A DNA stretch of 64,000 nucleotides. It comes from Naegleria gruberi (taxonomy: Eukaryota). How positions within the stretch are numbered: position 1 is the stretch's first letter; each line of letters begins with the position of its first letter. Location of the stretch: assembly GCA_000004985.1 (NCBI GenBank), contig GG738848.1, one strand, 5' to 3'. The notes under the pieces are model-generated. The model saw only the letters and a program-made list of their open reading frames with translations, was not told the origin of the DNA and did not search any database. Of the stretch, positions 10,776 to 63,627 are shown piece after piece. The position numbers and the translations under genes were made by a program.

Positions 10776-13700
10776 TTATTGAAAGGATCCAAGTTGAATC
10801 TTGTTGTGTTTTTGAACCATTGCATAGAACATGGATGAGTGATCGTTTAATAATTGTGTTGGACTTGCAAATTCTTTCACAATTCCATCATCAATGACCA
10901 CAACTTTATCATAATCCAAAATAGTTTCCAATCGGTGGGCAACACAAATGACAGTACATTTCTGGGAGAATTCATTTCTCAAGACTTGTTGGATTAGTTT
11001 GTCAGTTTCCAAATCGCAGAGAGCTGTGGCTTCGTCCAATACGAGAATTTTACAGTTTCGAATAAGTGCTCTGGCAAGACAGAGTAATTGTCTTGTACCT
11101 GCTGAGATGTTTTCTCCATTTTCTGATATTTCCATTCCTAATCCTGTTGCTCGAGGTTGAATCTCATCACTTTCTTCATTCGAAAGTTGGAATAATTTAT
11201 CTTTCATTCCAACCTTTTCCAATGCATTCCAAAGCTCCCGATCTGTAAATTGTGAATATCCATCAAGATTATCTCTTAATGTTCCTTTAAAGAGTGTTGG
11301 CTGTTGAGGAATGATACACAAGGCACTTCTCAAAGTTTCTAAAGGAACATTTCTAATATCAATTCCATCTACCAAAATGGAAGATTCTGATTCAATTTCT
11401 TGCATTCTGAATAGAGATTGGATTAAACTTGATTTTCCACAACCTGTCCTTCCACAAACAGCAATTCTTTCCTTTTCCTTAATAGTTAAATTAATTCCTT
11501 TAAGAACTAATTTGTTAGTCACTTGATTATTCGACTCTAAACTCTTGTACCTCATTAATACATTGTTGAAATTAATGTTTCCCTCACTCGCAAAGCTTTC
11601 AACTTTTTCACCTACTCCCTCAGGTTCATATTTTTCACTTTCCAAATTTGAATATTGGTCAATTCTTTGAATGGAAACTAAACCATTTTCTATCAATACC
11701 AATAAATAAGACAAGTAATATAAAACATCAAAGTTTGAAGTAGCTTGTAGAATAATCATTCCAACAAGTGGACCTCCAGATGCTAAAACACTTGACATGA
11801 TAATAACCGAAACGGCAAGACCACCCAATATTTCATTTCGAATATCAAAGTATTTGTACATGCACTGAATATTATATCTCACGTGTACGTGGTTATCTGC
11901 CTTAAATTCGAATAAATCTTTCATTAATTCTTCCTTTCCAAATGCACGAATGGTTTGAAGGCCATTAAGAGTTTCGGATATTTGAGAACTGAGTGGAGAT
12001 GAATAAATTCCAGACAATGTTGACAATTCTCTCAATGTAACTCTAAAGTAACTTTGATAATACAAGATTATTGGGAATAAAATAACTAAAATAAATATGG
12101 AAAATGGAGAAAGTATTAAAATGGTAACTAGGCCAAAAATCCAAAACATGAGAACTGGAACAAACTCTCTCAACAATGAATTCAACTCACTATCAATTTG
12201 ATTAGTATCTCTGGTAAATCTTGCAATAATTCTACCCACTGGTGTATTATCAAAAAAGGTAATACAAGAATTAACAATACTGTTCATGAGTTTTTCATGA
12301 AGTTTCTTTGCAGTATTCAAATAATGGGATAGAGCAAGGAAATTACCCATCACATCTACGCATACATAAAGAATAGCACTTCCTAAATAAGTCATTAAAT
12401 AGAAAATTAAAGTGAAATTTTCATATTTCTCATCAGTTGACCATTTGGTAAGGACATATTGATGAACAACATCAAGAATTTTGAATATAATTCCAAGAAT
12501 GCAAATAACTACAAATATTGGCTTGTTATAACCAACAGCAAACTTGAGAAGAGTTTTGTAATTTTCCCAAACTGTTCCCTTCACTCGTTGTTCTTCTTCT
12601 ATGGATGTGAATTTCTCCAATGATTCGTCATCATTTGGAAGTAGTTGAAGAGTTGGCTTGATTTCTTCTTGTTCAGTTTCGAATAAATCTTCTTCGACTT
12701 CTTCCTTCTTTTTACTAAACTCATCAATCAAATTTCTAAATACATTATTGGAATCTTGATAAAGTTCATGATAAGTTCCATTCTGAATGATTTTTCCATC
12801 TTCAAATACAAGAATTCTCTCTGCTTTGTCAATAAAGTGAATTTGATTCGTGACCATAATTGTTGTTTTACCAGCTTCCAAAAGTGGAAGTATTCCAAAT
12901 TTCATAATATGATCTGCAGTGTGAACATCAACTGCTGAGAGAGGATCATCCAATAGATAAACATCTGCGTTCGAATAGAGACATCTTGCTAAGGAAACTC
13001 TCAATTGTTGACCTCCTGACAAGTTGACACCATTTTCACCAATCATACTCAAATCTAAAATTTCTTTTGAGATTTGATAAAGATCAGTTTCTAAATTGCA
13101 TGCGTGTAATACTTTGGAATATCTTTCCGAATTAAATTCTTCACCAAAAGTTATATTTTCACGAATAGTTTGGTTTCTAATCCAAGAATCTTGTGAACAG
13201 TAGGCATATTTGAGTTTAGATTGTTTTTGGAAAGTGGAACAGCCATCATCTATTAGTCTAGTTTCTCCCAATAATGAAGATAAGAAAGATGACTTTCCAG
13301 AACCGACCTTTCCAATAACACAAATAAACTCACTCTTTCTAATTGACAAATTCATTCCTTTCAAACAAGAAACAGGTTCAGTAGAATCAACAGGATCCCA
13401 AGTAAATGAAGCATCTTTCATTTCTGTAATTATTTCATCATTTTCCACTTGGGCAATTTGGTGTGAAACTTCTTCAGCTCTCAGAAACTTGACAATTCTG
13501 TTAAATCCAGTTACTGCTCTTGAAACTTGTAATGCAGATGAAGGAAGTTGAATTGTTTCATATCTTACCAATTCCAAAGCATTAAGGAAGGAGAATGCAA
13601 GACTAACACTCAAAGATTGATTGCTGAAATAACAAAAATGGACGAAACTGACAAATGAAATGAAAGGAGCAAAAGTATTCCACAAGCATTCCATTCCTGC

Positions 13701-14732
13701 GTCTGAAATGAACCCCTTCTTAATATTTCTCATCTCAGTTTCTCTAATATTCATAATCTTGTCTTTAAATAGTTTCTCCATTGTATAATATTTGACAAAT
13801 CTCATAGCAGAAACTAATTGTGAAATAATTTCACTTCTTTCGTCCTGGTTCGACTCTATAATCTTTTCCATTCTCTGCTCCCAAATCATACAAACAATAG
13901 AAATTGGAATAATCACAAGTAAAATGGCAGAGAATCCAACAAGTGCTGAAATTCCTAGAAGAAATATTGAGAAGGAAATGGAAACTGAAATGTAAACAAA
14001 AGCTCCAATGATAATTTCAACATGATAGTAAAACCATTCGAACTTTTCAGTGTCAGTCGTTGCAATATTCATAACCGTTCCAGTTGAGTATTCTTGCTTG
14101 GAGCTAGAGTTTAGTTTAAGTGTCTTGTTGTAAATTGCATTAGAAAGGGAACTCTTTGTAAACTCTCCAATTTCTTGAGCAATGAATAGGCCGTGATCTG
14201 CACAGAATGTTTTCACAACCTTACAAATAAATAGGATTATACAAAAACCAACAATATATGAAACTGATTCAATATTCAAGTCATTATTGGAAAGTGTACT
14301 TTCACAATATATCAAAATAATGTTCAAAATGAATAATCTTGCAACTTCTGAACCAATCAATATCAATTTCAATACAAATGCCCAAGCAATCTGTAAAAAG
14401 TACAACTTGACAAAAAACCAAGCACATTTCCATGTGGAAATTTCAGCTGAATTCTCAAATGTTTCAATAAACTTTTCAAAGGGTTTCGAGCTTGATCTAA
14501 ATCCCCATGATGGCTGCATCTTGGTCAATTCATTCAATTCTAAAAATCCTTTAGAAAAAACCTTCTTAATCATTGGCTGTACTGAACTAAACGTGAATGC
14601 ACTCCATAAATGTCCAATCGAACATCCATTAGAATATGCTGTTTCGTCATATATCGTTTCCTTCCTTCTAAATGTTGAAGAGCATTGGGACATTTCAAGT
14701 TGTTGTTGTGTTTTTTTGATATTTTCATTCAT
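10776..14732 (-). CDS. ABC transporter of the ABCC/MRP subfamily, full transporter with TMD-NBD-TMD-NBD layout.
   Basis: NBD1 has Walker A GKVGSGKSS, signature LSGGQQLRVSLARCLY and Walker B VYLLDDPLSAVD. NBD2 has Walker A GRTGCGKSS, the degenerate ABCC-type signature ISAGTRQLLCLARALIRN and Walker B ILVLDEATALCD. There are two blocks of 5-6 TM helices. The 1318-aa ORF is uninterrupted. Confidence 0.85.
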   Translation of the reverse strand: MNENIKKTQQQLEMSQCSSTFRRKETIYDETAYSNGCSIGHLWSAFTFSSVQPMIKKVFSKGFLELNELTKMQPSWGFRSSSKPFEKFIETFENSAEISTWKCAWFFVKLYFLQIAWAFVLKLILIGSEVARLFILNIILIYCESTLSNNDLNIESVSYIVGFCIILFICKVVKTFCADHGLFIAQEIGEFTKSSLSNAIYNKTLKLNSSSKQEYSTGTVMNIATTDTEKFEWFYYHVEIIIGAFVYISVSISFSIFLLGISALVGFSAILLVIIPISIVCMIWEQRMEKIIESNQDERSEIISQLVSAMRFVKYYTMEKLFKDKIMNIRETEMRNIKKGFISDAGMECLWNTFAPFISFVSFVHFCYFSNQSLSVSLAFSFLNALELVRYETIQLPSSALQVSRAVTGFNRIVKFLRAEEVSHQIAQVENDEIITEMKDASFTWDPVDSTEPVSCLKGMNLSIRKSEFICVIGKVGSGKSSFLSSLLGETRLIDDGCSTFQKQSKLKYAYCSQDSWIRNQTIRENITFGEEFNSERYSKVLHACNLETDLYQISKEILDLSMIGENGVNLSGGQQLRVSLARCLYSNADVYLLDDPLSAVDVHTADHIMKFGILPLLEAGKTTIMVTNQIHFIDKAERILVFEDGKIIQNGTYHELYQDSNNVFRNLIDEFSKKKEEVEEDLFETEQEEIKPTLQLLPNDDESLEKFTSIEEEQRVKGTVWENYKTLLKFAVGYNKPIFVVICILGIIFKILDVVHQYVLTKWSTDEKYENFTLIFYLMTYLGSAILYVCVDVMGNFLALSHYLNTAKKLHEKLMNSIVNSCITFFDNTPVGRIIARFTRDTNQIDSELNSLLREFVPVLMFWIFGLVTILILSPFSIFILVILFPIILYYQSYFRVTLRELSTLSGIYSSPLSSQISETLNGLQTIRAFGKEELMKDLFEFKADNHVHVRYNIQCMYKYFDIRNEILGGLAVSVIIMSSVLASGGPLVGMIILQATSNFDVLYYLSYLLVLIENGLVSIQRIDQYSNLESEKYEPEGVGEKVESFASEGNINFNNVLMRYKSLESNNQVTNKLVLKGINLTIKEKERIAVCGRTGCGKSSLIQSLFRMQEIESESSILVDGIDIRNVPLETLRSALCIIPQQPTLFKGTLRDNLDGYSQFTDRELWNALEKVGMKDKLFQLSNEESDEIQPRATGLGMEISENGENISAGTRQLLCLARALIRNCKILVLDEATALCDLETDKLIQQVLRNEFSQKCTVICVAHRLETILDYDKVVVIDDGIVKEFASPTQLLNDHSSMFYAMVQKHNKIQLGSFQ

Positions 14733-18460: not shown

Positions 18461-19591
18461 ATGACACTCACCAACATTGATATTGAAAATAAAGAGATTT
18501 TAAAGTGGCTATGCAAAAGAACAAACTCAATCTATAGCTCAACTTTGTTGCCAGAATTGTCAGAACTTCCGTTGAAATCTGGCAGCTTGATATTTCATGA
18601 TAACAATAATTCAGTATTGGCAGTAGCAGATATATATGATTCAATAGGATCAGTAGTGGTTACTTGTAAAGGAAGTCAATCAATCTATGACTGGGTGTCA
18701 AATTTCACTGAATTTCCAACAACTTCTAATCAAAATTCTATTCCTGATTTCATTTACGAGAATGCATTGAAAATTTCACAGAAATTTGATAGAGAATCGC
18801 CAAATATTTTCAATAATAAGAAGGTGATTTGTTGTGGGCATAGTAGAGGTGCAGGAATTGCTTCTTATTTGGGCTATCATATTGCTTCAAATTCCAAGAA
18901 CTGTCAAGTGTCTGTTTTGACATTTAGCTCAATTCCATATGCCAATGATCAATTTAAAACTGCTTTCGACAATGTAATTTACAAAGCTAAGAATATCATT
19001 TCAATTCTAGATCCACTTCAAACTTTATGGGTTTCTAGAAATATCCCAGGAGAAACTAGAATATTGGAATTCACCTATCCAGGTGCATCAGCAATTGCAC
19101 TCTTTACCATTCCACTAACAGCATTCGTTAAGGAGATTCATTGTCTGTTTGACAAAATTTTCCATTTGCAAGGAATTTCTGAAATATTGGAATGTGCAAC
19201 ATCTTTTGCCTTATTTAAAGGTACAAGTCAATTCTTGTCCTTTTCTGGACTGGTGACCATGTTTCTTATGGATGTTGGAGTTAATGTATTCCAAGGAAAG
19301 TGTCACAAGATGGATTATACACAGCATGTAGTTGGAGGTGGCGTTGAACCTCTTATTAAGGCAGTTTTTGAGTTGCTGTCTGATGTCAACAACAAGACAA
19401 CCAACCTGGTGAATTTGATAACTAAGTTTGTGATGGGACCATTATTTGGATTGTTGAAGAAACTTTTCGTGAATGTTGTTGATCTGATCGATCAATTATG
19501 GAACGCCCTAAAGGAATTTGTGGGACAAGCTGTTAATTTCTTTAAATCTAGTTTATCTTTGATTTCCTATCATCCAATAGTGCAAAATTAA
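18461..19591 (+). CDS. Class 3 lipase-like protein with an intact GHSxG nucleophile elbow.
   Basis: The 376-aa ORF contains VICCGHSRGAGIASYLGY, the GHS-x-G motif. Its overall layout matches 17083..18288, including a C-terminal amphipathic helix region. It is divergently transcribed from that paralogue with about 170 bp between the two starts. Confidence 0.5.
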   Translation: MTLTNIDIENKEILKWLCKRTNSIYSSTLLPELSELPLKSGSLIFHDNNNSVLAVADIYDSIGSVVVTCKGSQSIYDWVSNFTEFPTTSNQNSIPDFIYENALKISQKFDRESPNIFNNKKVICCGHSRGAGIASYLGYHIASNSKNCQVSVLTFSSIPYANDQFKTAFDNVIYKAKNIISILDPLQTLWVSRNIPGETRILEFTYPGASAIALFTIPLTAFVKEIHCLFDKIFHLQGISEILECATSFALFKGTSQFLSFSGLVTMFLMDVGVNVFQGKCHKMDYTQHVVGGGVEPLIKAVFELLSDVNNKTTNLVNLITKFVMGPLFGLLKKLFVNVVDLIDQLWNALKEFVGQAVNFFKSSLSLISYHPIVQN

Positions 19592-22338: not shown

Positions 22339-24897
22339 ATGACATCCGTCAATAAGAACAAGGCTCTGTTTGAAAAGCTGGATGCCAGCGCAGCCAAAGA
22401 CCAGCACATTTTGAATGGTGGAGCTACAACTACTGTACAAAAGAAACCATCATCAATTTCAACATCCAATAATTCGTCTAGTTTCGGCAAAGCAAAATCA
22501 TCAAATAATAATAATACTAAAACAACCAATAATAATAATACCAAAACGACAAATTCATCATCCACTTCATCATCATCCTTTCTAAACAAGACTAATAGTT
22601 CACCATCATTGAAATCGAATAATAATTCGAATAGTGCTTCAGCAACCAAGACCACACCAACTCCACCTCCTTTCAAACAAACCACCACAACTCCCACTGC
22701 GCCACCAAAAACCAGCACAGTTTCCACCACTTCTGTCAATTCACTCAACAAACTATCAACCAACAGTCAATCAAGTCCAACCTTGAAAAGTACTTCAACC
22801 ACCAGCAGCAGTATTAACAGTCCTAGTGGTAGCACACGTAAAGCACCTCCTCCACCATCATCCTCTTCATCATCAGCATCATCAACTTCTCCTAAACTGC
22901 CATCAACACCAAGTACGTCAGCCATCAAAAAAACATCAAACACTCCAAGTACTCCAAGCACACCAATTTCTGCACTTGTGGACAATGATTACTTTAGTTC
23001 AATTACTAAAGATGTTCCAAAGAGTGAAATTAAAATATCTGGTCCTAAAGGATTGACACACGTTGGTCATGCCTCAACTAATGATCCAACTGCATTGTTT
23101 AAGAAAAATGCTCGATCTCAAACGATTACTGGTGGAGAACTTTCGAATAGTTCAACAAAGAAGAGGGATGGAGTGAGTTTTGATGTTCCTGTAAGTGAAA
23201 AGAGTGAAAAGAAGGATGGAGAAGCATCTGGTTCGAGTGCTAAACAAGTTTTGAATCAGGCAACTGATAAATTGAAAAGTGGAATGTCCAAGATGACCAA
23301 TTTGGTCAAGACTACTTGGGCTGCTGTTGGAAATGATAGTCCATCTACTCCAACCAGTAGCTCCAGCTCTAGTGGTAGTAGCTTAACAAGTTCTAAGAAA
23401 TCAAAGCCAAAGAAATTGCCACCAGTTCCAAAACCTGCAAATTCAGTTCGTGTTGCAAATACCAAAGTTGTGAGTATTTACATTCCAGAGAATGATGCTT
23501 CCGAACATGATCGTGAATTGGAAAAGACCAGAACTGAATTGGAAAAGAGAAAGACCATGATGAACGAGAAAATTAAGGAAGAGGAAAAGAAGAAATTAGC
23601 AGAAATGAAACAAAATATTCTCCAAGAGGAGCAAGCCAAGAAGAAACAATTGGAAGAAACATTACAAAAGGAAGAACGTGCCAAATTGGAAAAACTTGAA
23701 AAGGAACTAGCCAGTTTATCAGACCAAAAGAGAGAAGAACAACTTAAACAATTGAGAAATGAAGAAGCCAGAAGAAAGGAGAAAATGCTCTCTGATTTGG
23801 ACAGAGATGCCAAGACTAAGATTAAGGAAATCGATAGTCAAGTTCGTGCTGAAAAAGAAGATCGTTTGAGACAACTCGAAGAGGAAATGAGAAAAGAAGA
23901 AGCTCTTGCCAGAAAGGACATTGAAAAGAAATTCAAGGAAGAGGAATTGAAAAAGAAACAAGAACTTCAAGCCAAGATTGAAAAGGAAGAAAAGGAAATG
24001 TTGCAACGTATTCAAAAGAAACTCCAGGAAGAGGAAGAAAGAAAACTCAAAGAGCTCGCTCGTAAAATGGAAGAAGAAGAACAGCAACGATTGGAAAAGA
24101 TTAAAGCCAACTTGAAAGAGATTGAAAATGCTAAAAAGCAAACACCTCAACATCAAGAAGTTTCACAATTGAGAAGAAAGTCAGTCACTGCTCGTCTCAT
24201 GCAGGAAGAAGAAGAAAAGATCAAACAATTAAGTCAACAAATTAAACAAGAAGAAATGAAACGAATTGAAGAATTGGAAAAGAAGATGAAACAAGAAGAA
24301 CAAGAAAGAAAGCAAAGAATGAAACAAGAACTCGAACGTCTCGAAGACGAACAACGTCAACTCTTAATGCAACAATTGGAAGAAGAGAAACGAAAGCTCC
24401 AAGAAAAATTCCAAAAGGAAGCCGAAAAGGAAGCTGAGGAACACCGAAAGAAACTCCTAGCTCAAAATTCTGCAATCATTTCGAATAATGTTTCAGTTCC
24501 ACCACCTCCTCCATCTTCTTCATCATCAGGTTCTATTCCTCCACCTCCAGGTGGTAGCTCTCTTCCACCTCCACCTCCAACTGCCATTCTTCCTGTCTCT
24601 ACTCCAAAAATTGAAATTCACATTGATTTACCAGAACTCTCTGGAAGAGGTGACTTGTTAGAAAGTATCAGAAAGGGAGCTAGTTTAAAGAAAGTCACTA
24701 CAGAACAAATCAGCAAACCTCAATCCTCAGGAAATGCCATCACTAACATGCTCAAAAAAGCCCTCGACCAAAAACGAATTCACATGGCAGACGAAAGTGA
24801 TGAAGAAGAAAGTGAAGACGAAGATGATGAATGGGATTCAGAAGCTCACAATTTAATTGAATCTAAAAAGAAATCATTAGTCAACTCTGATGAATAA
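22339..24897 (+). CDS. WASP-family actin nucleation-promoting factor-like protein with CRIB-like motif, long E/K-rich coiled coil, poly-Pro, WH2 and acidic Trp-containing tail. No WH1 domain is evident.
   Basis: The 852-aa ORF starts with an S/T/N-rich low-complexity N-terminus. The CRIB-like motif is IKISGPKGLTHVGHAS. A coiled-coil region of about 400 aa is rich in E, K, R and Q. The poly-Pro block is PPPPPSSSSSGSIPPPPGGSSLPPPPP. The WH2 motif is GRGDLLESIRKGASLKKV. The acidic tail with a conserved Trp is DESDEEESEDEDDEWDSE, an Arp2/3-binding A-region signature. Confidence 0.55.
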   Translation: MTSVNKNKALFEKLDASAAKDQHILNGGATTTVQKKPSSISTSNNSSSFGKAKSSNNNNTKTTNNNNTKTTNSSSTSSSSFLNKTNSSPSLKSNNNSNSASATKTTPTPPPFKQTTTTPTAPPKTSTVSTTSVNSLNKLSTNSQSSPTLKSTSTTSSSINSPSGSTRKAPPPPSSSSSSASSTSPKLPSTPSTSAIKKTSNTPSTPSTPISALVDNDYFSSITKDVPKSEIKISGPKGLTHVGHASTNDPTALFKKNARSQTITGGELSNSSTKKRDGVSFDVPVSEKSEKKDGEASGSSAKQVLNQATDKLKSGMSKMTNLVKTTWAAVGNDSPSTPTSSSSSSGSSLTSSKKSKPKKLPPVPKPANSVRVANTKVVSIYIPENDASEHDRELEKTRTELEKRKTMMNEKIKEEEKKKLAEMKQNILQEEQAKKKQLEETLQKEERAKLEKLEKELASLSDQKREEQLKQLRNEEARRKEKMLSDLDRDAKTKIKEIDSQVRAEKEDRLRQLEEEMRKEEALARKDIEKKFKEEELKKKQELQAKIEKEEKEMLQRIQKKLQEEEERKLKELARKMEEEEQQRLEKIKANLKEIENAKKQTPQHQEVSQLRRKSVTARLMQEEEEKIKQLSQQIKQEEMKRIEELEKKMKQEEQERKQRMKQELERLEDEQRQLLMQQLEEEKRKLQEKFQKEAEKEAEEHRKKLLAQNSAIISNNVSVPPPPPSSSSSGSIPPPPGGSSLPPPPPTAILPVSTPKIEIHIDLPELSGRGDLLESIRKGASLKKVTTEQISKPQSSGNAITNMLKKALDQKRIHMADESDEEESEDEDDEWDSEAHNLIESKKKSLVNSDE

Positions 24898-27817: not shown

Positions 27818-30800
27818 TCAAAGTCTTATTTTATCTTCGTTTTCTTCAGTTTCTTGTTGTTCTATAGCTTGTTGGTCATCAACTGGTGGATATGTTTCTT
27901 CCTTTCTATCCATGAAGAATGCCCTAGTACTGCCCATCAGGTTCAAACTATTACGAAGAGATGCATTGTGCATATTTTCAGCTCTCATTCTGGTAGATCT
28001 AAATGATGCGAACTTGGAGTTTGATTCTGGTTGACTTGTGGCTGATTGTACTTGTGTTAGTTGTTGTAAATGTTTGAAAACTTCAACTTCTACTGGATTT
28101 TCATGATCTACATTATGAATTACAGACCCTCCAAAACTGACATGAGCATTAGAATCTGCACCTTCCTCTTGATGAGGGAAAATTTCAAGTGGATCAACGT
28201 GATGTTTCTTCTTGAGTAAGTAGGTCTGGCAAAGTCCTTTTCCTTTCACATCAATTTTCCGTTCCTCAAATTCCATTCCCAAATCGTGAACTCTTTCATA
28301 GGTAGTTCTAGAAATTTGGATACGACCTGGTTCTCCTGTTGATTCCATTCTTGAGGCAGTATTGATGGTATCTCCCCACAAGTCGTAGGCAAACTTTTTG
28401 ATTCCAATCACACCAGCAACAACTGGTCCTGTATGTAGGCCGACACGAATGTTTACATTGGTATTCTCGCTGCAATTGTATTCCTTGATTACCTGAAGTG
28501 TATCAATGGCGAATCTCAATGACCTTTCAGGGTGATCTGATTGAGCATTCAAATCAATACCTCCAACACAAAAGTAAGCATCTCCAATGGTTTTAATCTT
28601 TTCCAAATTATACTTTTCAGTGAGCAAATCAAATCCATTCACAATAGCATTCAACATTAATACAAGTTCAGATGGATTCATTCCAGAACTAATTCTTGTA
28701 AACCCAACCATGTCAGAGAAGAATACAGTTACATCATTGAATTTTTCAGCAATGAATGTCTCTCCTCCCTTCAATTTGGAAGCAACACTCTCTGGCATGA
28801 TATTCAACAATAACTGTTCAGATTTCTTCTTCTCTTCAGCTAGTAACATGTTTTGCTTCTTCTCAGGTGTGAAATCCTTGATGAAACAACTAATAACTGG
28901 CTTCTTGTTGAAAATACTAACAAACAAATTGACTTTGGAAGGGAATTTGGTTCCATTCTTTCTGTAGCATTCCAATTCAAGAGTTTCACCAAAAGGTTGT
29001 GTTGCATTGACCATTTGTTGAATAATGGTTTCCAAACGTTGTCTATTATTATCGGAAGGATCGAATAGCTTGGTGAGCTTTTCTCCTAAAACATCACTAT
29101 TAGTCATGCCAAACATCTTTTGAGCAACTGGATTGAAAAGTTCAATGTCACCTTGTGAGTTACACAAAATGGCTCCATCAACTGCTGCATTCAAAATGGC
29201 TCTCACCTTACCGTCTCCACCACTACCTTCTTCTTCGTTGGTTTGTTTCTTTGATATTCTTAATTTGCTTGGAAGATTATTGAAAAGAGCAAATTGTTTC
29301 AACTCTTCATTGGATTCCATAGCCTCAATTGGAAGGTAGTTGAGTAAACTTCTTAATTGGTTGGATTGATCCCAAATATTTTGAATTAAACCATATGTCA
29401 AATATCCTAAAATTGCTAAAATAATAAATCCAAAAACAGAAAATAGGATGGTAATGATGAGATTTGGAACTGACATTGATGATGAATAGAAAGTAAACAA
29501 GTTCAAGAATTTTTGCAACAAAATATTGCACTTGTCATCTGTAGTAAGCATTGTCTTGTAAAGGTCAATCAACTTGTAATTACTAAAGTAAACATCCTCT
29601 GAAAATGTATTACTAGCCGTAGAGAAATCAACAATTAAATCATTAATACTACTACAAGAGTAATAGGTGGTATTAGTACAGTTGGTACTTTCAAGAATAG
29701 CCGTAACTTCAGTGCTTGATGACGTAAATGAAGATTCATATTGTAAATTATTCCAATAACTTGCAAGTGATCCCGTCAGTGCCTTATTCTCATCATGGAA
29801 AGAGTCAATTTCTGAAGATGTTATCAGCCTGGGGTCATTGATACTGGAAATGTCTGCATATCTCTTGGCAATAAAAATCTCCGAAAGTCTAAATGTTATA
29901 GAGACAGAGGTGGTCATAATTTTAACACCACTTTCAATATTCTCGAGTGCAAGTATTGCTTTTTGGGAGTCTAATTGAAAATCCAAGAAAAGCATAGACA
30001 TGCAGCATACTGTCAAGAAAATAGTCGCAACAATCAAGAAGGAAACTGAAAATTGAGGTCTTTCAAATAATGTAGGATCTTTCACATCAATATCTTCACC
30101 ACTCTTTGATTCCAAGTGGTGATAGATTTTTCCAATATAGTCCTTTGTGATTGATCTTGACATGAACTTGATTGTTGACTTAATTTGTCTCAATTTAAAC
30201 GTAGAGAATGCCACAAAAACAATTGCAATAATACCATAAACAGATATCGAAATAGCATAAAAGTAAATAAACTGCTCTTGCAACATTGTGTACTGTTCCT
30301 TATTTCTTTGTAAAAATAATTCACACATGTTTGAAAAACTAGCGGTTTGAACTTTTCTATTCTTCCAGAAAAACATAAAGTTAGAAGCAGTTGTTGTGTT
30401 TGAATATGATGTCATGTCCATTGCCAAATATTCATTGGTGTTTTTGATTATAATATCATTGATTTCTGAAAGGGAGGCATTTCTCTTTTGATTGAAAGAG
30501 TCTGCACTTGTAAAGTTGTTATCATAGTAAACAACTGGTAAATAAAGATCATGAGTAGAACTGGTAAAATCAGATAGCATTCCTTTTGTGAATTTTGATG
30601 CTGATTTCTTGAGAGATTGAAGAACTGTTACATATGTTCTAACTCTTGCCTTGTGTGCTGCAAAATAGCTTGTTGTACTGTTGGATCCATTGACCATAGT
30701 TGCAGCAATATCGTTACTGTACAATGGAAACATCTTGTTAAAGTTTTGAATCATTCTAATCTCTTTTAACATGTATCTTGGGAAGAATTGTGGAATGCAA

Positions 30801-33067
30801 ACATAATGTGCAACTGCCACATTATTATCAATTTGAATAGAGAAACTCACACCGAGACCAATTGCAACAGTCAAAATACTCAATGAAAAGCAAAAGATAA
30901 AGCCAAAGAAGTACATCAAAATGTTTGATCCCTTTGTTCTATTGAGGGCGGATCTTATTTGCAACTCCTTCTTGATAATTGATGAACGATTTTCTACTCC
31001 ATCAAACTCAGACGACTCTGAAACAGACTTTTCATCAAAGTTGAACTTGTTATTTTTCGATTCAACATTTGGCATGTATGGCAGGACCTTATTTCCTTTG
31101 ACAACTGGTTTCTTGTGGGAAACTTTACGAGTTTCCTCATCCTCAATAGTTGCTGCCTCGTCATACATTTCATTGGCTCTTTCTTTGTCAAATTTAATTT
31201 CTTCCAAAAACTTGGCATATGTTCTTAAAACATTCTTATTGTTACCATAATTTGACATTAAATTGGTTAGCACAAGGGTACATTGTTTTGTGAGTGATGT
31301 GATTTGACTGTTCAATGAGTCAATCTTGTCTACGGATACTGATTCACTCATCATTTCCTTCCAAAATGATTTGTGTAAAGAGCTGATAATAGCATGCTTC
31401 TTTTCAATTTTCTGAATGATATGTTTGACTTCTAATAGCTTTTTACCATCTTCTAGAGATATCTCCAACTCTTTTGTTCTGAGACTGATGGAAAATCTTT
31501 GAATCAGATTTGGTAAGTTTTTAGTGGCCTTCTCCAAAAGTTTCAATCCAGCACTTTGTTGACCTTCAATAAAGTTTCCTGTAATCACAGCAGCAATTAC
31601 TAAAAGGTCAATATTCTGATAAGTTTTCTGACTAGCAACTCCTTTGATAAAGCATTTGGCCATTTCAATTTCTGTCAAATTACCAATTGATAAACCTTCC
31701 TTTGCAGTCTTGACACAAAATTTCAAGAAGAGAAACAATCTTCTAGTCTTTTTTGTTTCCTCAATTTCATGTAAAATGTTGAGCGCTTGTCTCTCAAGAA
31801 TATACTTGGGATTAATAAAATCCAAATTGTCACTCTTAATTAGAGAATCAAGACCCTTCTCCAAGTGATCGAGAAATACTGCCTTGATATCTTTCATAAT
31901 CATTCGAGTGTACATCTCTAATGAAATACTTCCAACTGCAAAGAAGACAATCATTACAAAGAAGGTTATTCCCATCAATCCTAAACCAAGTCCAAACTCA
32001 TTCTCTTTGTTTACATAGACAGATACCACTCCACACAAGGAAGAACCAACTGCAGCACACATAAAACCAAAGTAAACTGAATTCTCCCATCTTGTATAGA
32101 ATGGAATAAAGTACAGAAAAGATGCAGCAAGAATAAATCTTGTTAGAAAGTAATAAACTGCTTGAATGACAATGTAATCGTCTGAAACCAAGCATGTAAA
32201 AATGTAAAAACTTGTTGAAGCAAGAAAGTTGAAGAATAAAAAGTGCAAATCGTACGAAGCAAATGGTGTCTTACTTTTAGCATGTACATCCATCAATGTG
32301 TGGGTTCCAACAAATAATGAAAGTGGCACTGCAAACACTGACATAATTCCAAGAACCATCATGGCAATATTACCACTTCCGTAACAATATACATCTGGGT
32401 ATCTCTGTAAAACTTGATGTGGTGTCAAAGCTGGTGCAACAATCACCGATGATGCATAGTTACAATCGAGGAAACCCAACAAGAGCCAACTAATTGGCAT
32501 AGATAGTAGACACGTTGTTGCAATAATTATCTGCGTGGCAATCTTTATCTTTGGCCAATATTTGCTCATTGTATAGACTGACCTATAGGCCAATGCCAAA
32601 GTAATAACCGAAACAATAAGAAACGCAAAGAAAACCGAAGCAATAATTAAGGCTGGTATATATGGAACATTTTCCAATCCAAATGTCATTGGATAATTGA
32701 GTGCTCTAGCTATCCATTTACCATATTCTCCATAGTTATAGTCTGGTTGTATTCCAATGAATAGTCCTATCCAAATAATGTACAAGTGCACGCACAACAT
32801 GACGATTTTGTCTTTCCTTGAGATACATTCTGTCGAGTCGTGCAAACTCATCAACAAAGTTATCAGAGATTCTTCAACTTTTGCCATGAAGGTCATATTA
32901 TTAAATTCAGTGTCCAAATCAGTTACTGAAACAACAGATTCAGAGCCAGAACCTGCAAACTTTGGTGGGCCTGCATTACTCCCCACCGAAAATCTTCTTG
33001 CACGTGTATCATATTGAGAGGGATTGCCCATACTGATGGCATCGTCTGTAATGTTGAGATTATTCAT
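27818..33067 (-). CDS. Polytopic class III nucleotide cyclase with 6 TM, a cytoplasmic region, 6 TM, a PAS/PAC domain and a cyclase homology domain. Adenylyl-type by the Lys in KIKTIGD.
   Basis: The 1749-aa ORF is uninterrupted. Two clusters of about 6 hydrophobic helices are present. The PAS/PAC segment is [38 protein letters not shown]...[21 protein letters not shown]. The cyclase domain is [16 protein letters not shown]...[15 protein letters not shown]...[36 protein letters not shown]. Confidence 0.8.
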   Translation of the reverse strand: [1749 protein letters not shown]

Positions 33068-57894: not shown

Positions 57895-59676
57895 TTGCAC
57901 CAATTTTATTTTAACCTTAAAAAAATGTCTATAAGCTCATCGTCAAGAATCACAGATTACTTCATCAATCCTCCTAAGGAAACACCTCCTAAGGCAGAGG
58001 AGAGCGTAATAAAGTACCCGTCTCTCGGTTGTGCTGGAGTGCTTAGTTCTGCTACAGTAGGAAGTGTAGCAACACAATTGTCACAACCTATGTTCCTTAA
58101 CAATTTCGGAATTAATGTTGATGCAGCACTAACTGATGATAAAGGAGAAAGAAACGAAGCAGAAAGAAATTTAGAGAAGGTGTTTTCACAGGACATTATT
58201 GATGACGCTTTGTTTAAAATAACACAAAGAAAATCTAATATTAAGGTTGGAGAAAACCACTCATGTGCTCTTGTTAATTGTAATTTGTTTTTGTCTATTA
58301 GATTTACAGATATGAAAGTGGATATGAACGGAAAAGAGTTAATACTTAAAGCTTCAGATGACGTTACTCACCACTCCAAATTCTCTAATCAAAGAGAAGA
58401 AGAAAAAGCCTCTTTTGATCTAACAGACGACGAGAAATCCTTCAATCTTTTATTGTATTACATGCAAAGTGTGTTGAGGGACACGTTGAAACCAGATTAT
58501 TACGTTATGCTTAATCAATGTAAATTTGTTACGGACCTTTTTGGCAAAAACATTGTTGAGATGTTCAGAGCAGAATCCAAAGAAATGAGGGAGGATTTTT
58601 TTGCAGATTTGTAAGTAGCTAATTAACTGGTTCAATGTTAATATTTCATAGTTTGAAAGTTATTATGCTGTCTCAAAGGCAATGCTTAGTGTTGATGGAG
58701 CAACTTGAAAAGAAAACAGGTTATATTTATCCCATTAAGGCTCCAAGTATGGGGAATGCTGGCGATTTTTACAGACTTTCAATGACAACAGTTCTCCCTT
58801 CGGAATTATTTTACTTTCTATTATTCGAATTGCAAATTACAAATCCAACTTTCACACAATTCAAATTGGCATCAATCATCCAACAGTTAAAAAACAAAAA
58901 GACCGATGTAAAGGCAGTCATAGATAACAAAAAGAGCGTTTCTGATGAAAATATACGTCTCATGGACAATCGTTACAAAAGTCTTGAACAAAAACTAACA
59001 ATACTAGAAAGCTTTTACCCAGAATTCTTAAGAGATCAAAATATTGTTATAGATAACACTGCATGCTGTTCAGCCATCGATAAACTCCAAGCAGGAATTG
59101 CTATTAAAGGAAGCATAATTTCTAATGAAAAAGATGTTAGAAGTCTTTTTTTGGATTGTCAAATTATTTCTAAATATGTAATTGAACTCACTAAGAGAGT
59201 GTTAAGAGAATTAGGAGTTGATATGAGTCTTATTATCACTAACACCGGAAAGGAGTTGAGTGATATAGACATTGACAACCATTTTGATTGTCTAAATATT
59301 AGATTCAAAAGAATGGTAAGTATCAAAACGACTTGAAGTTAAATCATATTGTAGCCAACAAACAGAAATAACAGATCTCGTGTCTTCATTGTTGAGAAAT
59401 ATTTGAATGATAAATGGTCCAAAACTCATATAATCAAACACTATGATGACAAAGATTACTTTGACAACGAAACTTATAGCAACCCTTTAGTTCTTAATAA
59501 GCATCACCGTGACCAAGTCCCTAACCTTTTTGTAGCAATTATGCCATTTATTGTTCATGATCATTCATATTGTACCCAAGAAAACATGCTTAAGATACTG
59601 TACTCTGCATCTCTATGTCTCTCAAAAACTCACAAGATGAAACATGTTCACGGAGACATAAAACCTGATCATATTT
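57895..59676 (+). CDS. Multi-exon gene ending in a protein-kinase catalytic domain. Partial, because the 3' end runs into the assembly gap.
   Basis: Exon 1 is 57895..58610. The ORF-track stop TAA is actually part of a GTAAGT donor. Intron 58611..58651 is 41 nt with acceptor tcatAG. Exon 2 is 58652..59315, with a GTAAGT donor right after ...FKRM. Intron 59316..59354 is 39 nt with acceptor ttgtAG. Exon 3 is 59355..59676+ and encodes RVFIVEKYLNDKWSKT (subdomain V-like) ... KMKHVHGDIKPDHI (catalytic loop HxDxKxxN-like). All junctions were checked in frame. Confidence 0.45.
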
Positions 59677-62600
59677 NNNNNNNNNNNNNNNNNNNNNNNN
59701 NNNNNNNNNNNNNNNNNNNNNNNNNNNNNNNNNNNNNNNNNNNNNNNNNNNNNNNNNNNNNNNNNNNNNNNNNNNNNNNNNNNNNNNNNNNNNNNNNNNN
59801 NNNNNNNNNNNNNNNNNNNNNNNNNNNNNNNNNNNNNNNNNNNNNNNNNNNNNNNNNNNNNNNNNNNNNNNNNNNNNNNNNNNNNNNNNNNNNNNNNNNN
59901 NNNNNNNNNNNNNNNNNNNNNNNNNNNNNNNNNNNNNNNNNNNNNNNNNNNNNNNNNNNNNNNNNNNNNNNNNNNNNNNNNNNNNNNNNNNNNNNNNNNN
60001 NNNNNNNNNNNNNNNNNNNNNNNNNNNNNNNNNNNNNNNNNNNNNNNNNNNNNNNNNNNNNNNNNNNNNNNNNNNNNNNNNNNNNNNNNNNNNNNNNNNN
60101 NNNNNNNNNNNNNNNNNNNNNNNNNNNNNNNNNNNNNNNNNNNNNNNNNNNNNNNNNNNNNNNNNNNNNNNNNNNNNNNNNNNNNNNNNNNNNNNNNNNN
60201 NNNNNNNNNNNNNNNNNNNNNNNNNNNNNNNNNNNNNNNNNNNNNNNNNNNNNNNNNNNNNNNNNNNNNNNNNNNNNNNNNNNNNNNNNNNNNNNNNNNN
60301 NNNNNNNNNNNNNNNNNNNNNNNNNNNNNNNNNNNNNNNNNNNNNNNNNNNNNNNNNNNNNNNNNNNNNNNNNNNNNNNNNNNNNNNNNNNNNNNNNNNN
60401 NNNNNNNNNNNNNNNNNNNNNNNNNNNNNNNNNNNNNNNNNNNNNNNNNNNNNNNNNNNNNNNNNNNNNNNNNNNNNNNNNNNNNNNNNNNNNNNNNNNN
60501 NNNNNNNNNNNNNNNNNNNNNNNNNNNNNNNNNNNNNNNNNNNNNNNNNNNNNNNNNNNNNNNNNNNNNNNNNNNNNNNNNNNNNNNNNNNNNNNNNNNN
60601 NNNNNNNNNNNNNNNNNNNNNNNNNNNNNNNNNNNNNNNNNNNNNNNNNNNNNNNNNNNNNNNNNNNNNNNNNNNNNNNNNNNNNNNNNNNNNNNNNNNN
60701 NNNNNNNNNNNNNNNNNNNNNNNNNNNNNNNNNNNNNNNNNNNNNNNNNNNNNNNNNNNNNNNNNNNNNNNNNNNNNNNNNNNNNNNNNNNNNNNNNNNN
60801 NNNNNNNNNNNNNNNNNNNNNNNNNNNNNNNNNNNNNNNNNNNNNNNNNNNNNNNNNNNNNNNNNNNNNNNNNNNNNNNNNNNNNNNNNNNNNNNNNNNN
60901 NNNNNNNNNNNNNNNNNNNNNNNNNNNNNNNNNNNNNNNNNNNNNNNNNNNNNNNNNNNNNNNNNNNNNNNNNNNNNNNNNNNNNNNNNNNNNNNNNNNN
61001 NNNNNNNNNNNNNNNNNNNNNNNNNNNNNNNNNNNNNNNNNNNNNNNNNNNNNNNNNNNNNNNNNNNNNNNNNNNNNNNNNNNNNNNNNNNNNNNNNNNN
61101 NNNNNNNNNNNNNNNNNNNNNNNNNNNNNNNNNNNNNNNNNNNNNNNNNNNNNNNNNNNNNNNNNNNNNNNNNNNNNNNNNNNNNNNNNNNNNNNNNNNN
61201 NNNNNNNNNNNNNNNNNNNNNNNNNNNNNNNNNNNNNNNNNNNNNNNNNNNNNNNNNNNNNNNNNNNNNNNNNNNNNNNNNNNNNNNNNNNNNNNNNNNN
61301 NNNNNNNNNNNNNNNNNNNNNNNNNNNNNNNNNNNNNNNNNNNNNNNNNNNNNNNNNNNNNNNNNNNNNNNNNNNNNNNNNNNNNNNNNNNNNNNNNNNN
61401 NNNNNNNNNNNNNNNNNNNNNNNNNNNNNNNNNNNNNNNNNNNNNNNNNNNNNNNNNNNNNNNNNNNNNNNNNNNNNNNNNNNNNNNNNNNNNNNNNNNN
61501 NNNNNNNNNNNNNNNNNNNNNNNNNNNNNNNNNNNNNNNNNNNNNNNNNNNNNNNNNNNNNNNNNNNNNNNNNNNNNNNNNNNNNNNNNNNNNNNNNNNN
61601 NNNNNNNNNNNNNNNNNNNNNNNNNNNNNNNNNNNNNNNNNNNNNNNNNNNNNNNNNNNNNNNNNNNNNNNNNNNNNNNNNNNNNNNNNNNNNNNNNNNN
61701 NNNNNNNNNNNNNNNNNNNNNNNNNNNNNNNNNNNNNNNNNNNNNNNNNNNNNNNNNNNNNNNNNNNNNNNNNNNNNNNNNNNNNNNNNNNNNNNNNNNN
61801 NNNNNNNNNNNNNNNNNNNNNNNNNNNNNNNNNNNNNNNNNNNNNNNNNNNNNNNNNNNNNNNNNNNNNNNNNNNNNNNNNNNNNNNNNNNNNNNNNNNN
61901 NNNNNNNNNNNNNNNNNNNNNNNNNNNNNNNNNNNNNNNNNNNNNNNNNNNNNNNNNNNNNNNNNNNNNNNNNNNNNNNNNNNNNNNNNNNNNNNNNNNN
62001 NNNNNNNNNNNNNNNNNNNNNNNNNNNNNNNNNNNNNNNNNNNNNNNNNNNNNNNNNNNNNNNNNNNNNNNNNNNNNNNNNNNNNNNNNNNNNNNNNNNN
62101 NNNNNNNNNNNNNNNNNNNNNNNNNNNNNNNNNNNNNNNNNNNNNNNNNNNNNNNNNNNNNNNNNNNNNNNNNNNNNNNNNNNNNNNNNNNNNNNNNNNN
62201 NNNNNNNNNNNNNNNNNNNNNNNNNNNNNNNNNNNNNNNNNNNNNNNNNNNNNNNNNNNNNNNNNNNNNNNNNNNNNNNNNNNNNNNNNNNNNNNNNNNN
62301 NNNNNNNNNNNNNNNNNNNNNNNNNNNNNNNNNNNNNNNNNNNNNNNNNNNNNNNNNNNNNNNNNNNNNNNNNNNNNNNNNNNNNNNNNNNNNNNNNNNN
62401 NNNNNNNNNNNNNNNNNNNNNNNNNNNNNNNNNNNNNNNNNNNNNNNNNNNNNNNNNNNNNNNNNNNNNNNNNNNNNNNNNNNNNNNNNNNNNNNNNNNN
62501 NNNNNNNNNNNNNNNNNNNNNNNNNNNNNNNNNNNNNNNNNNNNNNNNNNNNNNNNNNNNNNNNNNNNNNNNNNNNNNNNNNNNNNNNNNNNNNNNNNNN

Positions 62601-62885
62601 NNNNNNNNNNNNNNNNNNNNNNNNNNNNNNNNNNNNNNNNNNNNNNNNNNNNNNNNNNNNNNNNNNNNNNNNNNNNNNNNNNNNNNNNNNNNNNNNNNNN
62701 NNNNNNNNNNNNNNNNNNNNNNNNNNNNNNNNNNNNNNNNNNNNNNNNNNNNNNNNNNNNNNNNNNNNNNNNNNNNNNNNNNNNNNNNNNNNNNNNNNNN
62801 NNNNNNNNNNNNNNNNNNNNNNNNNNNNNNNNNNNNNNNNNNNNNNNNNNNNNNNNNNNNNNNNNNNNNNNNNNNNNNNNNNNNN
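59677..62885. other. Assembly gap of 3209 N.
   Basis: A run of N. The 1198-aa minus-strand ORF at 59622..63218 is an artefact of translating N as X. Confidence 0.95.
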
Positions 62886-63627
62886 TTGGTTACAACATTT
62901 ACTCAACCTAAAGGTATTACCATGTTCAATGGTGATATTTATGTGGCAGACACAGGAGTAGCTGTTGTGTGGAAAGTTAAAATTACATACAGAAATGTTG
63001 GTACAGCAACTATTTATGCTGGAAGTTTCAGTACTTTGAATAATAATTATTGCAATGTCATTTATGCTACCAATTGTAAACTTATCAAACCAACAAGTGT
63101 AACTTTCTTTCAAGATGGGACTATGGCAATAGCTGATGGTAGTAGAGTTATTATGGTTAGTAAAGACCAAACGGCTTACCCAGCCCCTTTTTCCATGAGT
63201 GTTACTAATCCTATTCATGTTGTTGCATATTATGCTTCCAACATGTTAGTTTCTGATGCAGGTTTATCACGTTTCATTCAATTCAATAAGGATCAAGCTC
63301 AACCAAATACCAATGAAGTTTTGCGTAATGGATGGTCAGGAAATACATATTTTGGTATTGTTAAACAAGCTGATAATTCCAAGAATGTGTTTTTCCTCAC
63401 ATCTCAAGATCGCAATAACCAAAGAAATCAAGTTGCTTTGTTTAATTTTATTGACAGCGATTTACCAAGCACCAGTATAACAACACTGTATGGCATGTAT
63501 AGTTCTTTCAATTTTGACAATCCACATAATGCTTTGGGCATTTACTTGCCTGAGCCACAACAAATGAGATTGACTTCTAGTAATCAATTATATTTCCCAG
63601 TTTTCAATTCTGCTGTTGTTAAAGTTG
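62886..63627 (+). pseudogene. Subtelomeric open reading frame fragment, beta-propeller/NHL-like, open from the gap edge into the telomere repeat with no stop.
   Basis: There are 247 sense codons with no stop in AT-rich DNA (LVTTFTQPKGITMFNGDIYVADTGVAVVWKV...[11 protein letters not shown]). The frame then continues through the (GGGTTT)n repeat, which has no stop in any frame. The 5' end is lost in the gap. Confidence 0.3.

Follow-up and report, generated by a model that had tools for sequence, protein, structure and literature searches.

In characterised WASP-family proteins, a WH2 motif delivers an actin monomer, and a C helix and acidic, tryptophan-containing tail bind and activate Arp2/3. 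WHAMM and JMY carry one or more WH2 motifs with C and A at the C-terminal end, preceded in order by an N-terminal region, a long central helical region, and a proline-rich region (PPR). A further class, WAWH ("WASP without WH1"), was defined by Kollmar, Lbik, and Enge in 2012 (PMC3298513). In its type II members, N-terminal CxxC motifs and a Ser-rich region are followed by a GTPase-binding domain (GBD) that has no basic region, then a long coiled coil, a PPR, and a WH2-C-A (VCA) module, and type III, from Entamoeba, has an ~800-residue region between GBD and PPR that is ~90% E, R, or K (PMC3298513). The WAWH alignment comprises 19 sequences, from Dictyostelids, Acanthamoeba, Entamoeba, Thecamonas, and Anolis, and none is from Naegleria (PMC3298513). 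Here, we describe a gene of Naegleria gruberi at positions 22339 to 24897 of a 64,000-nucleotide stretch of contig GG738848.1 (assembly GCA_000004985.1). This whole stretch is the window, and all nucleotide positions refer to it. The product is likely to be a functional WH1-less WASP-type (class I, VCA) nucleation-promoting factor, and it probably originated from a Naegleria WASP paralogue.

Judged from its sequence, the C-terminus of this protein is a genuine PPR-WH2-C-A module. The WH2 motif that a first-pass annotation of the same DNA had proposed passed the profile check: Pfam PF02205 scored 30.6 bits, above its gathering score of 23.1, and was the sole Pfam match on the protein. That annotation had also placed a poly-Pro block, the WH2 motif, and an acidic DDEW in the right order, and they do follow one another, at residues 721 to 747, 773 to 786 (the WH2 core LLESIRKGASLKKV; nucleotides 24655 to 24696), and 829 to 832 (nucleotides 24823 to 24834). 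The published pattern for the C domain is three large hydrophobic residues spaced by three, a K/R doublet, and then another hydrophobic residue (PMC3298513). The C region fits this pattern exactly, with I801, L805, and L809, then K812-R813, and then I814, and it aligned to those of N-WASP (6uhc) and WAVE1 (4n78).

Sequence searches with the C-terminus led to the same family. When the last 118 residues were compared with all PDB chains by phmmer, N-WASP (3m3n, 1.4e-6; 6uhc, 5.7e-4) and WAVE1 (4n78, 4.6e-6) were recovered. The 6uhc alignment spans WH2, C, and A, and the 4n78 alignment extends from the PPR as far as the Trp. The last 105 residues, searched exhaustively by phmmer against 1.84 billion representatives, gave 37 matches at E ≤ 1e-3 (best, 1.7e-7), nearly all of them aligned at query positions ~21 to 86, from the WH2 motif through the Trp. 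The acidic Trp is at least 90% conserved in the alignment of these 37 matches, 36 of which have WH2, nine WH1, and eight PBD. The WH1- and PBD-containing matches indicate that the nearest VCAs are of the WASP/N-WASP type. Named matches include a WASL-like protein of Oscarella (53% identity over 65 residues) and Strongyloides WASp. A hidden Markov model (HMM) of the WAWH type II VCA, made from five Dictyostelid sequences in the PMC3298513 supplement that were chosen independently of the query, aligned end to end with residues 770 to 833 and scored 34.3 bits. The Pfam WH2 match, the PDB matches, and this HMM uphold the earlier proposal of a WASP-family-type nucleation-promoting factor with a VCA-like tail.

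Two of the VCA matches were noted for their architecture. Protein P0020 (392 residues, from an ENA contig) begins like a signal peptide and carries long proline-rich repeats and a tandem pair of WH2-C-A modules, both of which finish in an acidic stretch, with no domain besides these. It could be a secreted or pathogen-type mimic of an Arp2/3 activator. Protein P0037 (311 residues, from a Logan contig of a eukaryote) combines C2, CRIB/GBD, PPR, and VCA and is another WH1-less WASP variant.

The gene is an uninterrupted single-exon open reading frame (ORF) on the plus strand, encoding 852 residues plus a stop, in the ORF listing of the window. Its G+C content is 37%, and the G+C content at third codon positions equals that of the neighbouring genes. 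A second allele lies on a 3.9-kb metagenome contig (L001:1-3946; ENA ERZ929261), which was reached via the 90%-cluster mate of a neighbouring protein. It covers residues 92 to 852 of the same gene and has the same downstream neighbour, with 99.3% identity in the ORF and 97.9% downstream. The alleles differ at 17 of 2289 positions, with nine substitutions that are synonymous, five that are nonsynonymous, and a single in-frame deletion of 3 nucleotides. The rough ratio of nonsynonymous to synonymous substitution rates (dN/dS) is 0.18, and no change lies in the CRIB core or the VCA. The intact frame and the low dN/dS, a sign of purifying selection, argue for a functional gene, although the divergence is too small to speak for individual motifs. 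A chance ORF was dismissed because of the length and the frame that is intact in the second allele.

The N-terminus contains no WH1 domain. Pfam WH1 (PF00568) matched neither the whole protein nor the N-terminal segment alone, in agreement with the earlier description of a low-complexity N-terminus rather than an EVH1/WH1 domain. The first ~230 residues are S/T/N/P-rich low complexity, and on composition this region stands in the place of a WH1 domain plus linker. In a single-sequence AlphaFold2 (AF2) model, residues 21 to 299 are disordered. An upstream WH1 exon was excluded by in-frame stops 4 and 8 codons 5' of the ATG and by the 668-bp intergenic stretch that separates the ORF from its divergently transcribed upstream neighbour, in which no open stretch exceeds 60 codons and nothing resembles WH1. 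A motif scan of the disordered N-terminus found two RxxPxxP-type motifs (KTTPTPP at residue 104 and RKAPPPP at residue 167). There is no Cys anywhere in the protein, so it has no N-terminal CxxC motifs. The isolated helix predicted between the CRIB-like motif and the charged helix (Table 1) matched no family when its segment was run separately against Pfam. A resemblance of this helix to the pre-CRIB helix of Dictyostelid WAWH_A was rejected because it was too weak and the order was wrong.

The CRIB-like motif, ISGPKGLTHVGH, is at residues 233 to 244 (nucleotides 23035 to 23070). Pfam PBD did not match the whole protein or isolated segments of 40 or 124 residues at E ≤ 10. The PDB holds many CRIB-GTPase complexes, and a PDB sequence search with the CRIB region found no CRIB match, only a chance match to SLX4IP (E = 0.7). 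Full-length BLASTP against the N. gruberi protein NgWasp_A, whose sequence came from the supplementary alignments of Kollmar et al. (PMC3298513), reported proline-rich or low-complexity alignments only, and the CRIB match was not among them. However, direct comparison with the N. gruberi WASPs gave a different picture. The GBD of WASP_A, -C, and -D reads ...LFSKIFGTKNKDQIPDRSQIKISGPKVDKFKHVSHIGFDPKSGFTDIPPELKTIFAKAGISEDELKDKKTAKFLMKTLV (PMC3298513 supplement), and its counterpart here reads ...DYFSSITKDVPKSEIKISGPKGLTHVGHASTNDPTALFKK..., with the exact 7-mer IKISGPK in common. S[QE]IKISGPK is identical to NgWasp_A at eight of nine positions, and H-V-x-H and a similar upstream flank are also shared: YFSSITKDVPK (residues 218 to 228) precedes the core, in parallel to LFSKIFGTKNKDQIPDR of NgWasp_A. 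Smith-Waterman alignment of residues 205 to 340 to the NgWasp_A GBD segment scored 52, which was reached by 0.18% of 5000 shuffles, or by 0.45% when the whole of residues 1 to 388 was shuffled.

We also used three custom GBD profiles (WAWH only, WAWH plus WASP-type matches, and both plus NgWasp). The best domain of all three was at residues 229 to 248, with 3.1 to 6.0 bits. Composition-preserving shuffles scored as well in 0.4 to 0.5% of cases for the profiles without NgWasp and in 0.06% for the one with it. (An earlier GBD HMM from 10 mostly metazoan WASP-type matches, superseded by these wider profiles, found the right location at 0.2 bits, with 2.2% of shuffles equal.) Because of the match to NgWasp_A in CRIB and flank and the location of the best domain in the custom profiles, the motif most likely derives from a WASP ancestor as a true CRIB core that has decayed. 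The CRIB assignment in the first-pass annotation fails with Pfam PBD and the PDB but has partial support from NgWasp_A (eight of nine residues; p ~0.002) and the GBD profiles.

Aligned without gaps to I-S-x-P-x-x-F-x-H-x-x-H-V-G, the motif retains I, S, P, and both His, with L for F, as had been noticed before, and A-S for V-G. Against the consensus I-S-x-P-x2-4-F-x-H-x-x-H-V-G, five of eight residues are retained, in addition to the F-to-L change. The first His had been reported as missing, which was a product of a gapped alignment. CRIBs of accepted members are equally degenerate in EdWAWH_A (ISEPTDFRQINHAT) and NgWasp_B (MGSVKNFQNTAHVG). In every custom profile, the alignment covers only positions ~5 to 25 of 70, and after the core these profiles detected neither the beta-hairpin nor the IPxEW(K/R)..F..AG(I/V)....L......FI helices. 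In WASP, those post-CRIB helices bind the C region, giving autoinhibition. A motif scan found no polybasic stretch ([KR]3 run) upstream of the CRIB. On these profile and motif results, the CRIB core is all that is left of the GBD, with the autoinhibitory half and the basic region absent.

These observations bear on whether the protein might be a Cdc42/Rac-regulated, autoinhibited WASP-like activator, in which a GTPase bound at the CRIB releases the VCA. The I, S, P, and both His that the core keeps, its homology to the NgWasp_A CRIB, and the equally degenerate CRIBs of EdWAWH_A and NgWasp_B are in favour of this. However, there is no Pfam PBD or PDB match, the GBD alignment ends after the core without the hairpin and helices that would bind C, no polybasic stretch lies upstream, and AF2 predicts the CRIB region to be disordered. 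Furthermore, residues flanking the CRIB core are needed for high-affinity GTPase binding in WASP and PAK. Because the autoinhibitory GBD half and the basic region are missing, WASP-style autoinhibition released by Cdc42/Rac, as a form of the Cdc42/Rac regulation that the first-pass annotation had envisaged, is not supported, and we consider it unlikely.

By eye, a motif of the form [LYF]F[SE][SK][IL] occurs ~16 residues 5' of the CRIB (YFSSI, residues 218 to 222, within nucleotides 22987 to 23022), and a second copy lies inside the N-terminal predicted helix (LFEKL, residues 10 to 14, within nucleotides 22363 to 22404). Counterparts seen in the same way are GLFSKI in NgWasp_A and DcpWAWH_B, RFFQKV in DdWAWH_B, and VFGFFRGV in NgWasp_B. 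It is possibly an element conserved ahead of the CRIB in non-metazoan WASPs.

Between the CRIB-like motif and the poly-Pro block, the first-pass annotation had described a 400-residue E/K-rich coiled coil. A long charged region is indeed found there, at residues 388 to 716 by AF2, but it is ~320 to 330 residues long by composition and AF2. The E/K/R/Q-rich stretch spans residues 389 to 707 (~320 residues) and is 56% E/K/R/D, 11% Q, and 21% hydrophobic, and the AF2 single-sequence model has two helices (pLDDT [predicted local distance difference test], 70 to 89). We measured hydrophobic periodicity and E/D-to-K/R pairs at i+4, with the DdWAWH_A coil (type II) and the EhWAWH_C ER/K region (type III) as controls. 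For residues 389 to 707, z was -1.1 at 3.5 residues, 11 to 15 at 3.67 to 3.75 residues, and 6.3 for the i+4 pairs, which occur at about twice their frequency in shuffles. The DdWAWH_A coil gave 10 at 3.5, 2.4 at 3.67, -0.4 at 3.75, and 2.3 for the pairs, and the EhWAWH_C region gave 2.7, 2.4, 0.6, and 13.5, respectively. With no heptad periodicity (at 3.5 residues), "coiled coil" is not supported as a description, and a canonical heptad coiled coil was rejected. The region looks more like a long, charged helix of the ER/K (single-alpha-helix) type, with hydrophobic residues in an unusual stripe that does not follow heptads. If helical and extended throughout, its 322 residues would span ~48 nm at 0.15 nm per residue. 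The 3.67- to 3.75-residue spacing (nucleotides 23500 to 24486) is hendecad- or pentadecad-like, and straight amphipathic helices and right-handed coiled coils typically show such spacing.

Table 1. Features of the WASP-type gene and its predicted product (positions in the window; aa, amino acid residues)
Feature	Position	Strand	Basis
Gene for the likely WH1-less WASP-type nucleation-promoting factor	22339..24897	+	ORF listing, second allele
S/T/N/P-rich disordered region, aa ~21-217	22399..22989	+	Composition; no Pfam match; AF2 pLDDT ~30, no secondary structure
Degenerate CRIB core, aa 229-248, SEIKISGPKGLTHVGHASTN	23023..23082	+	Custom GBD HMMs, Smith-Waterman vs NgWasp_A
Isolated predicted helix, aa 300-329, SAKQVLNQATDKLKSGMSKMTNLVKTTWAAVG	23236..23325	+	AF2 single-sequence model, pLDDT 72-80
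KKLPPVPKP, aa 358-366, candidate SH3 ligand	23410..23436	+	Motif scan, by inference only
Charged helix, aa 388-716 (helices 388-599 and 607-716, broken at Pro603)	23500..24486	+	AF2, periodicity, i+4 pairs
Proline-rich region, aa 721-747 (PPPPP, PPPP, PPPPP)	24499..24579	+	Composition; aligned to WAVE1 PPR
WH2 (V) motif, aa 768-788, core LLESIRKGASLKKV	24640..24702	+	Pfam PF02205; N-WASP WH2 alignments; AF2 helix 770-778
C (central/connector) region, aa 798-817, GNAITNMLKKALDQKRIHMA	24730..24789	+	Published pattern; N-WASP/WAVE1 alignment; AF2 helix 799-813
Acidic (A) region, aa 818-835, with Trp832, DESDEEESEDEDDEWDSE	24790..24843	+	Sequence; VCA alignment
17-aa extension past the acidic region, AHNLIESKKKSLVNSDE, plus stop	24844..24897	+	Sequence, AF2

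We looked for this protein in public collections. The exact ORF product was not in a 15-billion-protein collection, although both flanking N. gruberi genes were. Word-index searches of a 5.8-billion-cluster index with the CRIB segment and the VCA found no entry, the protein itself included, and the exhaustive VCA search of the 1.84 billion representatives found nothing above 53% identity. A homology search with the whole protein gave 8000 low-complexity candidates, none of which was significant, and a literature search for the Joint Genome Institute (JGI) id 62822 found nothing. The absence from collections and indices suggests that the gene is probably either unannotated or modelled differently (mis-modelled) in the public annotation of N. 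gruberi NEG-M. No orthologue in another species was found in the 1.84 billion representatives, in the cluster index, or in two JGI metagenome scans with the VCA and the CRIB region. For their Naegleria actin inventory, Velle and Fritz-Laylin used BLAST against the annotated proteome (PMC7594500). They mention five further WH2 proteins that are unlisted in their text (PMC7594500), and ours may be one of them.

A working model for the protein can be put together from these parts. The WH2 motif would deliver G-actin, and C and A (with W832) would engage Arp2/3, leading to branch nucleation. With no clamp on the C helix, the VCA is probably constitutively accessible, and activity would then be set mainly by the place and density of recruitment. 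The disordered S/T/P-rich N-terminus, with SH3-ligand-like motifs at residues 104, 167, and 358, could provide handles for recruitment, and profilin or SH3 binding at the PPR is another candidate. Weak binding of a Rac-type GTPase at the residual CRIB is possible. The long helix between the N-terminal part and the PPR-VCA might serve as a spacer or oligomerisation element.

Several points weigh against a functional factor derived from a Naegleria WASP paralogue. One is the 17-residue tail after the acidic region, which is unusual for WASP proteins; the last AF2 helix (residues 831 to 849) starts in the acidic region and spans most of this tail. Another concerns ancestry, because the VCA is far nearer to metazoan N-WASP than to NgWasp_A or -B, which sits awkwardly with a recent origin from those. 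An NgWasp VCA HMM gave 1.0 bit, and a Smith-Waterman alignment of the VCA with that of NgWasp_A scored 57 (p = 0.002). The CRIB evidence also includes the Pfam PBD and PDB negatives and custom-profile scores of only 3 to 6 bits. Finally, motif conservation rests on one near-identical allele, with no orthologue found in other species. As an observation in its own right, the signals of ancestry differ between the two ends of the protein: the VCA is much nearer to metazoan N-WASP and Dictyostelid WAWH type II than to NgWasp_A or -B, and the CRIB flank is nearest to NgWasp_A.

Some of these points would also suit a decaying, nonfunctional WASP paralogue, in which the ORF is drifting and the motifs are relics. 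Such decay would be consistent with the degenerate GBD and the large amount of low complexity, as well as with the failure to find an orthologue or to find the product in public protein sets. However, an 852-codon frame is unlikely to last by chance in a 37% G+C gene. Furthermore, the frame is intact in the L001 allele, where the indel is an in-frame one of 3 nucleotides, dN/dS is ~0.18, and the CRIB core and VCA are unchanged. WH2, C, and A are also near-consensus. We therefore regard decay as very improbable. Least probable of all is a WHAMM/JMY-like factor with a microtubule- or membrane-binding helix, an organelle-targeting N-terminus, and a C-terminal WCA, for although the overall order of regions is similar and the 3.67 to 3.75 periodicity fits a straight amphipathic helix able to lie on a surface, Pfam found no WHAMM/JMY or other N-terminal domain, the CRIB flank points to WASP ancestry, the nearest VCAs are WASP-type, and Naegleria amoebae in interphase reportedly have no cytoplasmic microtubules (PMC7594500).

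For the favoured WH1-less WASP-type factor, a more specific history can be proposed, which we hold only tentatively. In it, a Naegleria WASP paralogue gave rise, independently and within Discoba, to a WH1-less WASP with a very long charged helix, which converged on the amoebozoan design of WAWH types II and III. The protein would be a real Arp2/3 activator that inventories missed because the annotated proteome lacks its gene. As a rigid single-alpha-helix spacer of ~48 nm, its helix would set how far a membrane-recruited N-terminus lies from the site of branch nucleation.

Naegleria serves as a main model outside the opisthokonts for crawling and phagocytosis driven by Arp2/3, and feeding that depends on actin is how its pathogenic relative N. 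fowleri kills. An extra VCA-bearing activator outside the annotated proteome would alter the count of nucleation-promoting factors for Naegleria, and it could account for residual Arp2/3 activity when WASP or SCAR is perturbed. A second, probably independent case outside Amoebozoa of a WASP that has a very long helix and no WH1 would point to a recurrent solution of amoeboid cells. Also, our protein has the CRIB core of the GBD and Entamoeba type III has the autoinhibitory part, a contrast that works as a natural experiment to tell which of the two halves is important. Even so, the protein is an incremental addition to a well-understood family and brings no new mechanism. Specialists in actin-regulator evolution should find it useful and unsurprising.

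The ORFs flanking the gene are exact matches to the N. gruberi proteins NAEGRDRAFT_62821 and NAEGRDRAFT_62823, which shows the window to be nuclear DNA of this species. Elsewhere in the window are genes for a 1749-residue protein with TPR, PAS, and adenylate/guanylate cyclase catalytic domains (27818-33067, minus strand), an ABC transporter (10776-14732, minus strand), and a class 3 lipase (18461-19591, plus strand). These are ordinary neighbours, and they have no obvious functional link to the WASP-type gene. Assembly gaps (N runs) occupy positions 59677-62885 (3209 bases) and 41108-41157 (50 bases). The listed "1198-aa ORF" at 59622..63218 (minus strand) spans the 3209-base N run and was rejected as an artefact.

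Comparison with described systems places the protein close to WAWH. With type II (DdWAWH_A), it shares the lack of WH1, a Ser-rich N-terminus, no basic region before the CRIB, the (E/K)ISGP... start of the CRIB, a very long helix from CRIB to PPR, and a single WH2-C-A. It differs in having neither the two N-terminal CxxC motifs nor a post-CRIB GBD (IPxEWK...), and its helix has no heptads, in contrast to the DdWAWH_A coil (z = 10 at 3.5 residues). Also, the supergroups differ: it is from Discoba, whereas type II is from Amoebozoa. With type III (EhWAWH_C), the common features are long S/T-rich low complexity, a charged E/K/R helix with an excess of E-to-K pairs at i+4, a PPR, a VCA, and no WH1. 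However, the Entamoeba region is ~800 residues long, 83 to 90% charged, and 8% hydrophobic, whereas ours measures ~320 residues, of which 56% are charged and 21% hydrophobic, and has a periodicity of 3.7 residues. The likeness is thus one of kind and not of extent. In Entamoeba type III the post-CRIB GBD has been kept and the CRIB core is lacking, and our protein shows the reverse. WH2 is degenerate in Entamoeba type III and near-consensus here.

NgWasp_A, -C, and -D are from the same organism and have in common with our protein an S/T/P-rich linker, the pre-CRIB flank and start of the CRIB, H-V-x-H, a PPR, and a single WH2-C-A. However, NgWasp_A has WH1, a complete GBD, and no long helix, and our protein is the opposite on each count. 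The two VCAs are weakly similar. Metazoan N-WASP/WASL has the closest VCA sequences among the 1.84 billion representatives, but, unlike our protein, N-WASP combines WH1, a basic region, and a full GBD with a pair of WH2 motifs and lacks a long charged helix. The order of regions resembles that of WHAMM/JMY, from which the protein differs by having no detectable homology to their N-terminal or central domains and by its relic of a WASP-type CRIB. The domains of SCAR/WAVE, WASH, WHAMM/JMY, and WAML (SHD, WAHD1, WMD/JMY, and IMD, respectively) had no Pfam match on the whole protein or on four segments at E ≤ 10.

Of the features that define WAWH, the PPR, the VCA, and the absence of WH1 are all found here, and GBD homology is limited to a weak CRIB core. 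Of those for type II, the protein has a Ser-rich region, no basic region before the GBD, and a long helix, although a non-heptad one. Strings from our protein were not found in eight supplement files of PMC3298513, two of them represented in part. By architecture, the protein belongs in the operational class WAWH, between types II and III, and it fits neither type fully. The first-pass annotation had seen an unusual architecture and a possible lineage-specific class of nucleation-promoting factor, but WAWH types II and III had already been described (PMC3298513), and the overall design is already known from Amoebozoa. Even so, this is the first WAWH-like protein documentable for Naegleria and Discoba, and it has a distinct pattern of domain loss.

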